A DNA stretch of 6,008 nt from a virus (taxonomy: Duplodnaviria; Heunggongvirae; Uroviricota; Caudoviricetes), in the IMG/VR virus record IMGVR_UViG_2648501150_000028. One strand, given 5' to 3'. The notes under the pieces are model-generated. The model saw only the letters and a list, made by a program, of their open reading frames with translations, ran no database searches and had not been told where the DNA came from. A program made the translations under genes and the position numbers. Of the stretch, positions 4,106 to 4,528 are shown in pieces; the stretch's first letter is position 1, and the number at the start of each line of letters is the position of its first letter.

Positions 4106-4332
4106 TTACGCTATCAGGTAAAAGCCGGAAATTAAAAGCCTGCCGAATATCTGCCAGATACCTTTTTGCCCGCGCCTTTTTTAAGAACGTCAGGCCGGGG
4201 ATCACAATTGGTGTTATTGCCGGACGCGAACAGGTTGAAAAATACATGTCAGGTGCATGGTGGAATAACGACCCTGTCATTGCTGCCCGTAATATTCATA
4301 TCGAATGGGGAGGTATTCAGAATGACTACTGA
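4102..4332 (+). CDS. hypothetical 76-aa protein
   Basis: ATG 4102 in ATGA overlap with the upstream stop; GGAGG 4093-4097 upstream. Basic N-terminus, no family recognised. Overlaps the next ORF by 11 nt. Confidence 0.45.
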   Translation: MITLSGKSRKLKACRISARYLFARAFFKNVRPGITIGVIAGREQVEKYMSGAWWNNDPVIAARNIHIEWGGIQNDY

Positions 4333-4528
4333 AACCATTGTCTGTTTTCTTTTCTGGTATATGTACGCAGGATCATGCAGCGCAAGACTTCATCGTTCCC
4401 TGGGCTATGGCAGGCACTACGACACCGCGCATTACATCCTGTACATGACCGCCGTCATGTTGTTCTGGCCAGTCACCCTGCCAGCTGCAACCGACATTGT
4501 TGCCGACAGACTGAAAAAAAGGAGATGA
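4322..4528 (+). CDS. small membrane protein (68 aa, two predicted hydrophobic helices)
   Basis: RBS GGGGAGG 4307-4313, ATG 4322; the longer ORF-track version from ATG 4166 has no RBS and overlaps the previous gene. Hydrophobic segments IVCFLFWYMYAGSC and YILYMTAVMLFWPVTLPAA. Stop TGA 4526-4528 lies 1 nt before the gemA start. Confidence 0.5.
   Translation: MTTETIVCFLFWYMYAGSCSARLHRSLGYGRHYDTAHYILYMTAVMLFWPVTLPAATDIVADRLKKRR

Follow-up and report, generated by a model that had tools for sequence, protein, structure and literature searches.

Short gene overlaps in phage operons, both ATGA overlaps and longer ones, are a classic substrate for translational termination-reinitiation. The overlap considered here is one of 11 nt, shared by two small open reading frames (ORFs) found just upstream of gemA in a Mu-like prophage. 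I use here the terms 'X76' and 'Y68' to describe the upstream, 76-amino acid (aa) and downstream, 68-aa members of this pair, respectively. As with known, coupled phage overlaps, the genes involved share a strand, and overlaps of 4, 8, or 11 nt are seen along a DUF2786-X76-Y68-gemA-mor array. Differing from those systems, an 11-nt overlap exceeds the commonest lengths, which are 1 and 4 nt, and coupling is in this case read from sequence.

In terms of gene product, an analogous described protein is that responsible for superinfection immunity in phage T4, i.e., Imm. T4 Imm is an early, inner-membrane protein of approximately 83 aa which possesses two hydrophobic segments. Y68 is similar, by analogy only, in its size, in its predicted two-helix layout, in its early expression, and in being a non-essential gene. 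It differs in that no sequence or fold similarity to Imm was detected for Y68.

Among transposable phages, the B3-like Pseudomonas phage Fc02 carries exclusion genes, olg1/sie1 and gene 10, within its early/regulatory region (PMC9936078). Gene 10, which follows ner within the early operon, acts to exclude superinfecting phages (PMC9936078). Like Y68, these genes are small and accessory, and their carrier is a transposable phage. They are unrelated to Y68, however, in both sequence and genomic position, and the overlaps seen in Fc02 are instead long or antisense. The Fc02 paper reports no membrane prediction, with the word 'transmembrane' occurring zero times in that text (PMC9936078).

Closest of all are the catalogued relatives of Y68 itself. 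Protein XRL29414.1 of Escherichia phage PhiKM, a member of PHROG 6436, is 100% identical to the Y68 product and is encoded at the same place, between X76 and gemA, with no difference found. Protein WP_000123379.1 of E. coli 83972, described here as the 'type-B' allele, also belongs to PHROG 6436 but is only about 40% identical, this despite flanks that are 95-100% identical. Y68 is already annotated and catalogued (PHROG 6436, PhiKM, RefSeq). Literature searches on this prophage, on PhiKM, and on membrane proteins encoded near gemA turned up nothing specific.

The Mu-Like Early Region

The window, that is, the whole 6,008-nucleotide stretch of DNA that was analysed, corresponds to a Mu-like prophage's early region, as seen from gene content and Pfam matches. 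The ORF list and Pfam together place a MuB-like ATPase gene at 293-1498 and a Gam gene at 1798-2328. On the plus strand these are followed by a DUF2786/DUF7168 gene at 3422-4105 (with a longer ORF starting instead at 3386), as assigned by Pfam, annotation, and synteny, and by gemA, of the Mu gp16 family, at 4530-4979 (PF06252, E 8.3e-41). The Mor gene is found at 4951-5340 (PF08765, E 1e-43). Over the plus strand from 2300 to 5340 there were zero calls of sigma-70-like promoters or of intrinsic terminators.

Positions 3900-4700 are 100% identical to PhiKM, a phage whose source is a uropathogenic strain. Of 5,426 E. coli genomes that are complete, 640 possess the stretch 4000-4700, uropathogenic isolates included, and 463 of these do so at an identity of at least 99%. 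Both small ORFs have been annotated by PGAP, as hypothetical proteins, in hundreds of E. coli genomes.

Several further features of the window can be described. A plus-strand ORF of 64 aa at 2426-2620, annotated in RefSeq, is zinc-ribbon-like (CxxC...CPxC) and possesses a weak homolog (E 1e-8) in the most distant gemA locus. The region in question spans 2339-2620 of the window, considering both strands, along with 2440-2661 of locus L001, 1648-1842 of L004, and 2214-2405 of L101. The GenBank record of PhiKM has a minus-strand ORF annotated there instead, which probably is a strand mis-annotation. A 71-aa ORF at 3210-3425 matches PHROG 3958 over its full length and is strongly hydrophobic toward its N-terminus, over aa 8-35, with a maximum 19-residue Kyte-Doolittle mean (KD19) of 2.0; it is absent from the annotation of the E. 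coli 83972 prophage. As the title of the initial annotation called Y68 a 'second' small membrane protein, this 71-aa ORF presumably is the implied first one. Downstream of mor, at 5589-5749, there is a 66-nt tandem repeat (2.4 copies, 96% matches, 21-nt sub-period), where the plus-strand ORF of PhiKM is labelled 'Fe2+ ABC transporter permease protein 2', a label that looks doubtful.

Two Overlapping ORFs, Both of Them Genes

Y68 is found on the plus strand at 4322-4528, starting with the ATG at 4322 and stopping with the TGA at 4526-4528, the product being MTTETIVCFLFWYMYAGSCSARLHRSLGYGRHYDTAHYILYMTAVMLFWPVTLPAATDIVADRLKKRR. It represents the 'type-A' allele within a small family associated with Mu-like prophages of the Enterobacterales, as identified by its ORF, profile match, homologs, and dN/dS along with the coding sequences annotated in PhiKM and RefSeq. 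X76 (PHROG 3681) is found on the same strand at 4102-4332, with its TGA stop at 4330-4332. The two thereby share positions 4322-4332, which are ATGACTACTGA, and a single base, 4529, separates the Y68 stop from the gemA ATG at 4530. The initial annotation had reported both of these points, i.e., an 11-nt overlap with the preceding 76-aa ORF and an end 1 nt before the gemA start, and both are seen here as well, with the identity of gemA resting on PF06252.

The window contains 63 ORFs of at least 30 aa, and for this reason the length of the 68-aa ORF on its own is uninformative. The case for Y68 as a gene rests instead on comparative data. Its product matches PHROG 6436 from end to end, residues 1-68 aligning to profile positions 1-68 of 68 (E 2.2e-45, 153.6 bits). 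Among 98 related loci with a family match, the homolog is intact in 95, and over all 98 there are 39 distinct protein variants. The three broken homologs are either frameshifted (L016 and L017) or truncated (L097), and in L016 and L017 the gemA match to the query, too, is broken up into overlapping segments.

Substitutions within Y68 are distributed as one might anticipate of a protein-coding sequence. Between the window and its nearest allele, that of locus L019, dN/dS is 0.165, and within type B, considered pairwise, values are 0.09-0.26. For comparison, dN/dS is 0.11-0.23 for GemA and 0.065 for Mor. By codon position, substitutions between the window and L019 number 8, 9, and 22, while variable columns over 11 type-B loci number 19, 13, and 40, i.e., with an excess at third positions in both instances. 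All five of the other frames across Y68 are interrupted by stop codons in relatives. Two other ORFs of the window, one of 57 aa in the +1 frame (4375-4548) and one of 74 aa and antisense (4373-4597), were considered as coding and rejected owing to such stop codons. Y68, as judged by these sequence comparisons, is a real, conserved gene that is under purifying selection at a level similar to that seen with GemA and Mor.

The upstream gene is supported by its ORF, its PHROG, its homologs, and its dN/dS. X76 matches PHROG 3681 over its full length (E 6.5e-55), displays a dN/dS of 0.05-0.25, and has homologs, at 64-97% identity, which include those of P22-like Salmonella phages and of one siphovirus. 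Its maximum KD19 is 0.96, that is, it is not hydrophobic. X76 accordingly is a soluble, non-membrane protein as well as a separate, independently mobile module. A strongly conserved core, FARAFFKNVRPGI.IGV.AG..QV..YM.GAWWNNDPV..ARNIH..WGGI, is common to the Mu-like prophages, the P22-like phages, and the siphovirus. X76 does not belong to a Pfam family and can be described as a mobile, uncharacterised phage gene.

The initial annotation had raised the prospect that one of the two overlapping annotations may be wrong, i.e., that only one ORF is real with the other an artefact. Short ORFs are certainly abundant by chance, as the above count of 63 indicates, and neither Y68 nor X76 has a Pfam match. 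Both, however, are members of full-length PHROG families, both display dN/dS values well below 1 (0.05-0.26 across the two), and each is present without the other. Particularly, Y68 lacks X76 as a neighbor in most loci, while in the sole P22-like locus examined (L003, with X76 at 1448-1669) no Y68 homolog was found. This independent occurrence is why the two can be viewed as independent modules. Conservation at the protein level across homologous loci, as well as low dN/dS, is a property of both frames rather than of just one. These comparisons refute an annotation error of this sort, which has close to no chance of being the explanation.

Gene Junctions and Probable Translational Coupling

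The Y68 start is preceded, 8 nt ahead of the ATG at 4322, by a Shine-Dalgarno sequence, GGGGAGG (4307-4313, plus strand), which is located inside the 3' end of X76. The gemA Shine-Dalgarno sequence, AGGAG (4520-4524, plus strand), similarly is located within the last codons of Y68 (those specifying KKRR) and 5 nt ahead of the gemA ATG. In type-B loci an equivalent AAAGGAG is found within the C-terminal codons of the Y68 homolog.

What is found immediately upstream of Y68 varies from locus to locus. The slot may be empty, as it is in many loci, with the DUF2786 gene directly adjoining Y68 by way of a 4-nt ATGA overlap. Alternatively, the slot may be filled with X76, the overlap again being 11 nt in L004, L009, and L011, or with an unrelated ORF of 135 aa (in L019-L022, L059, and L060), the overlap being 8 nt in L019. 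A GGAG-type Shine-Dalgarno sequence is found ahead of the Y68 start in all three of these contexts. The 135-aa ORF (2604-3011 of L019) gives weak PADLOC matches to LmuB-like proteins (Lamassu, SMC-type; best E 4.6e-5), possibly reflecting coiled-coil similarity only.

The anatomy of a coupled pair is present, that is, a Shine-Dalgarno sequence and start that lie in or against the end of an upstream gene, on the same strand, and with an absence of intervening promoter or terminator calls. Translational coupling along the array would be the natural interpretation of that anatomy. The initial annotation's other suggestion, that both ORFs are expressed by coupling, is plausible in terms of the anatomy, which fits in three contexts, with coupling itself being what that anatomy suggests. 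The Y68/X76 junction is at the same time an ordinary, tightly packed phage operon junction, and the overlap needs no special explanation.

Family Distribution and Synteny

In a gemA-anchored scan of 80 viral contigs, with GemA 65-100% identical, a Y68 homolog was found upstream of gemA in 77, directly abutting in nearly all of them. All 13 of 13 genome loci, too, have a Y68 homolog upstream of gemA and downstream of the DUF2786/DUF7168 gene. Homologs are known from Escherichia, Klebsiella, Citrobacter, Salmonella, Enterobacter, Kluyvera, Prodigiosinella, Limnobaculum, Trabulsiella, Erwinia, Pantoea, Mixta, and others. Searching 1.84 billion representative proteins with a profile resulted in only 15 matches, each of them either a member of this narrow family or an artefact of how its genes were called. 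The Y68 family is tiny and restricted to the Enterobacterales. Members share the pattern LFWY..G.C.A.LH...G...Y ... WP..LP, a length of 64-71 aa, and a location upstream of gemA, and the window allele possesses all three.

The family is absent from phage Mu, with a tblastn search using Y68 as the query giving no match at the Mu locus, and the most distant gemA loci lack it as well. Because of these absences, Y68 may be viewed as accessory, i.e., as dispensable for a Mu-type life cycle. In Mu there is a short ORF just upstream of gemA, between E15 and gemA, which is Mu_54 (56 aa; 3961-4128 of L005). Mu_54 differs, however, in having no sequence similarity to Y68, and in Mu an annotated semi-early promoter separates it from gemA. 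Mu_54, Mu_14, and Mu_13 were all rejected as Y68 counterparts as they are unrelated in sequence.

Two additional loci have other ORFs in this vicinity. In L101, which lacks Y68, an unrelated, 48-aa ORF with a hydrophobic stretch (2353-2499) abuts gemA. The small, unrelated ORFs that precede gemA in L101 and in Mu may represent positional conservation or may instead be a coincidence. In L084, a viral contig, an extra ORF is present between the Y68 homolog and gemA (2225-2500). Its frame opens at 2225, and it would be about 78 aa in length if it starts at the ATGATG that overlaps the Y68 stop.

That Y68 so consistently is adjacent to gemA raises the issue of whether its frame might be solely a translated leader, one which delivers ribosomes to gemA while specifying a functionless peptide. 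The abutting or overlapping of the gemA start by the homolog in nearly all of the 77 contigs would be in keeping with such a role, as too would be the presence of the gemA Shine-Dalgarno sequence within the last Y68 codons and the presence in Mu and the most distant loci of other, unrelated short ORFs at that place. A functionless peptide, however, does not sit well with the purifying selection seen on amino acids (dN/dS of 0.09-0.26), nor with residues G17, H24, and G28 and the WP..LP motif being invariant or nearly so across alleles which are saturated at synonymous sites. In L084, moreover, another gene is found between the homolog and gemA. A leader role on its own is thus rather unlikely, and Y68 continues to be treated here as encoding a selected protein.

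An Allelic Cassette

Nucleotide identity between the window and the prophage of E. coli 83972 drops to 37-50% only at approximately 4300-4550, this versus 95-100% on both flanks. These positions (plus strand) are the approximate limits of an allelic cassette, as determined by sliding identity and by a contrast in dS. The Y68 of the window, as noted, is about 40% identical in amino acids to the common form, i.e., to type B, and the synonymous sites are saturated. Relative to L019, dS is 0.70 within Y68, while for GemA and the DUF2786 gene, which flank it, dS is just 0.05-0.07. A diverged gene found within near-identical flanks, in combination with saturated synonymous sites, implies replacement by recombination, at gene boundaries, of alleles that diverged anciently. 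Positive selection was considered as a basis for the 40% identity between alleles and rejected, given saturation of synonymous sites and a within-type dN/dS of 0.09-0.26. The cassette is the most noteworthy feature of this locus, yet nonetheless is standard phage mosaicism.

Predicted Membrane Hairpin

The family consensus is MMAExxVCxLFWYxxVGWCTAELHRxxGFxSRYSGAxxWISWAVMFLCWPVALPLYVDY, which is followed by a variable, charged tail. In one alignment (A3) the invariant residues are E4, Y13, G17, H24, G28, Y33, W49, P50, L53, and P54. In a wider alignment (A4), which includes the most distant members, G17, G28, W49, and P50 remain invariant, with H24, L10, W12, and P54 nearly so.

Three segments can be described within the Y68 product. 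The first, aa 5-23 (TIVCFLFWYMYAGSCSARL; 4334-4390, plus strand), is a hydrophobic, aromatic-rich helix as seen from hydropathy, the AlphaFold2 model, and the conserved LFWY..G.C motif. The second, aa 24-35 (HRSLGYGRHYDT; 4391-4426, plus strand), is a basic loop that is evident in alignments and contains the near-invariant H24 and the invariant G28. The third, aa 36-56 (4427-4489, plus strand), is a second hydrophobic helix, as supported by alignments, hydropathy, and AlphaFold2, and has the invariant WP along with the conserved LP motif. The AlphaFold2 model, based on a 23-sequence alignment, is of moderate confidence (mean pLDDT 70, pTM 0.35) and has helices at 2-27 and 35-67. One homolog is named 'Prophage membrane protein' in one source.

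The initial annotation described Y68 as a two-helix membrane protein. Two hydrophobic helices, a basic loop, and the recurrence of this pattern across the family support that description. The membrane portion of that description is likely, i.e., an inner-membrane hairpin with its loop cytoplasmic, yet unproven, as the hydrophobicity of the window allele is marginal. Particularly, its maximum KD19 is 1.5, and crude Hessa-scale sums, calculated without position correction, range from +2.4 to +4.4 kcal/mol. By the same crude sums, hydrophobicity is greater in other members, +1.1 for helix 1 of type B and -1 to -2 for the most distant member, P0045, which clearly is membrane-like. As to charge, the loop has a net of about +2 and the N-terminus is -1 in most members, while the C-terminal tail is variable, being +3 in the window allele. 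Under the positive-inside rule, that net +3 tail conflicts with placement of the C-terminus outside.

These same properties, that is, the marginal hydrophobicity, the positively charged C-terminal tail, and also the polar or charged residues within the segments (S18, S20, R22, and T43), would be as expected were Y68 instead a small, aromatic-rich helical protein that is soluble or only peripherally membrane associated, rather than being an integral, two-pass protein. W/Y-rich ends, as well as a WP motif located mid-helix, typify membrane helices. Y68 has both, and in addition two segments plus a basic loop are conserved across a family whose other members are more hydrophobic. A soluble or peripheral protein is accordingly the less favored possibility, one that nevertheless deserves to be taken seriously, and integral membrane insertion is preferred.

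If Y68 is in fact a two-pass membrane protein, then one might consider a class II holin or pinholin-like lysis protein, since in size and two-helix layout Y68 is as seen with S68 of phage 21. Consistent with that idea are the 68-aa length, the two hydrophobic helices, the charged C-terminus, and the Met-Met start of type-B alleles. The gene, however, belongs to the early operon, where it precedes gemA and mor, rather than being found with lysis genes, and no similarity to holin families was found in Pfam or the PHROGs. Experimentally confirmed holins are all late genes, and lysis by Mu does not involve a holin (PMC9239132). A holin role for this presumptive early membrane hairpin is therefore highly improbable.

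Possible Role in the Phage Life Cycle

A joint reading can be assembled from the above considerations, one which seems moderately probable as a whole. That is, Y68 is a genuine gene of a Mu-like early operon, and it would be part of a coupled array, encoding a membrane hairpin, and playing an accessory early role, with X76 a separate gene and the overlap a junction of modular insertion. In somewhat greater mechanistic terms, Y68 belongs to an early operon resembling the 'semi-essential region' of Mu, as carried by a Mu-like prophage found widely among E. coli. The DUF2786 gene, X76, Y68, gemA, and mor would, to go by their anatomy, be transcribed together as one packed array, with termination-reinitiation probably carrying ribosomes from each gene to the next. 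The resulting 68-aa product would be a helical hairpin, consisting of two aromatic-rich hydrophobic helices and a short basic loop, that most likely resides in the inner membrane with its loop cytoplasmic and both of its termini outside. The 11-nt overlap would be the junction left behind by modular gene insertion.

What such a protein might do is a matter of guesswork. An accessory early function during lytic development may be suggested, weakly. Given the cassette-like allelic replacement, Y68 may target a variable component of the host or of a competitor, with superinfection exclusion and modulation of a host membrane protein as examples. Mu-type early operons are repressed in lysogens, as established for Mu. 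An exclusion role consequently would be possible only during lytic growth, unless there exists an unrecognised promoter. Neither Pfam nor NCBIfam scans gave a match, be it for the window or type-B allele or for distant members. Against the defence and exclusion models of PADLOC-DB, zero families matched at E up to 1, whether the query was the window allele, that of type B, or any of three distant members. When the AlphaFold2 model was compared with viral structures using Foldseek, nothing scored below an E of 1, though a 68-residue, two-helix model with a pLDDT of 70 is too unspecific for specific matches. A specific exclusion function might be placed somewhere between improbable and doubtful.

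A more explicit version of the variable-target idea is that Y68 is a 'specificity cassette', i.e., that it encodes an early inner-membrane protein whose diverged alleles are swapped precisely at gene boundaries as a consequence of interacting with a partner that varies. Candidates for the latter would be a membrane protein of the host, the route of DNA entry used by a competing phage, or the co-translated GemA. The pattern of alleles is equally explained by ordinary phage mosaicism, and the specificity cassette is an improbable proposal.

Within an early region that otherwise is near identical, Y68 nonetheless stands out as the one gene that diverges the most, and it is in such genes that accessory or exclusion functions usually are found. 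It is, in that regard, an inexpensive candidate for screening and a mildly useful lead; otherwise, the result mostly confirms both annotations in what is a very common E. coli prophage. Were the specificity-cassette proposal to be true, then Y68 would represent an uncharacterised exclusion or host-takeover function of the Mu-like phages of the Enterobacterales.
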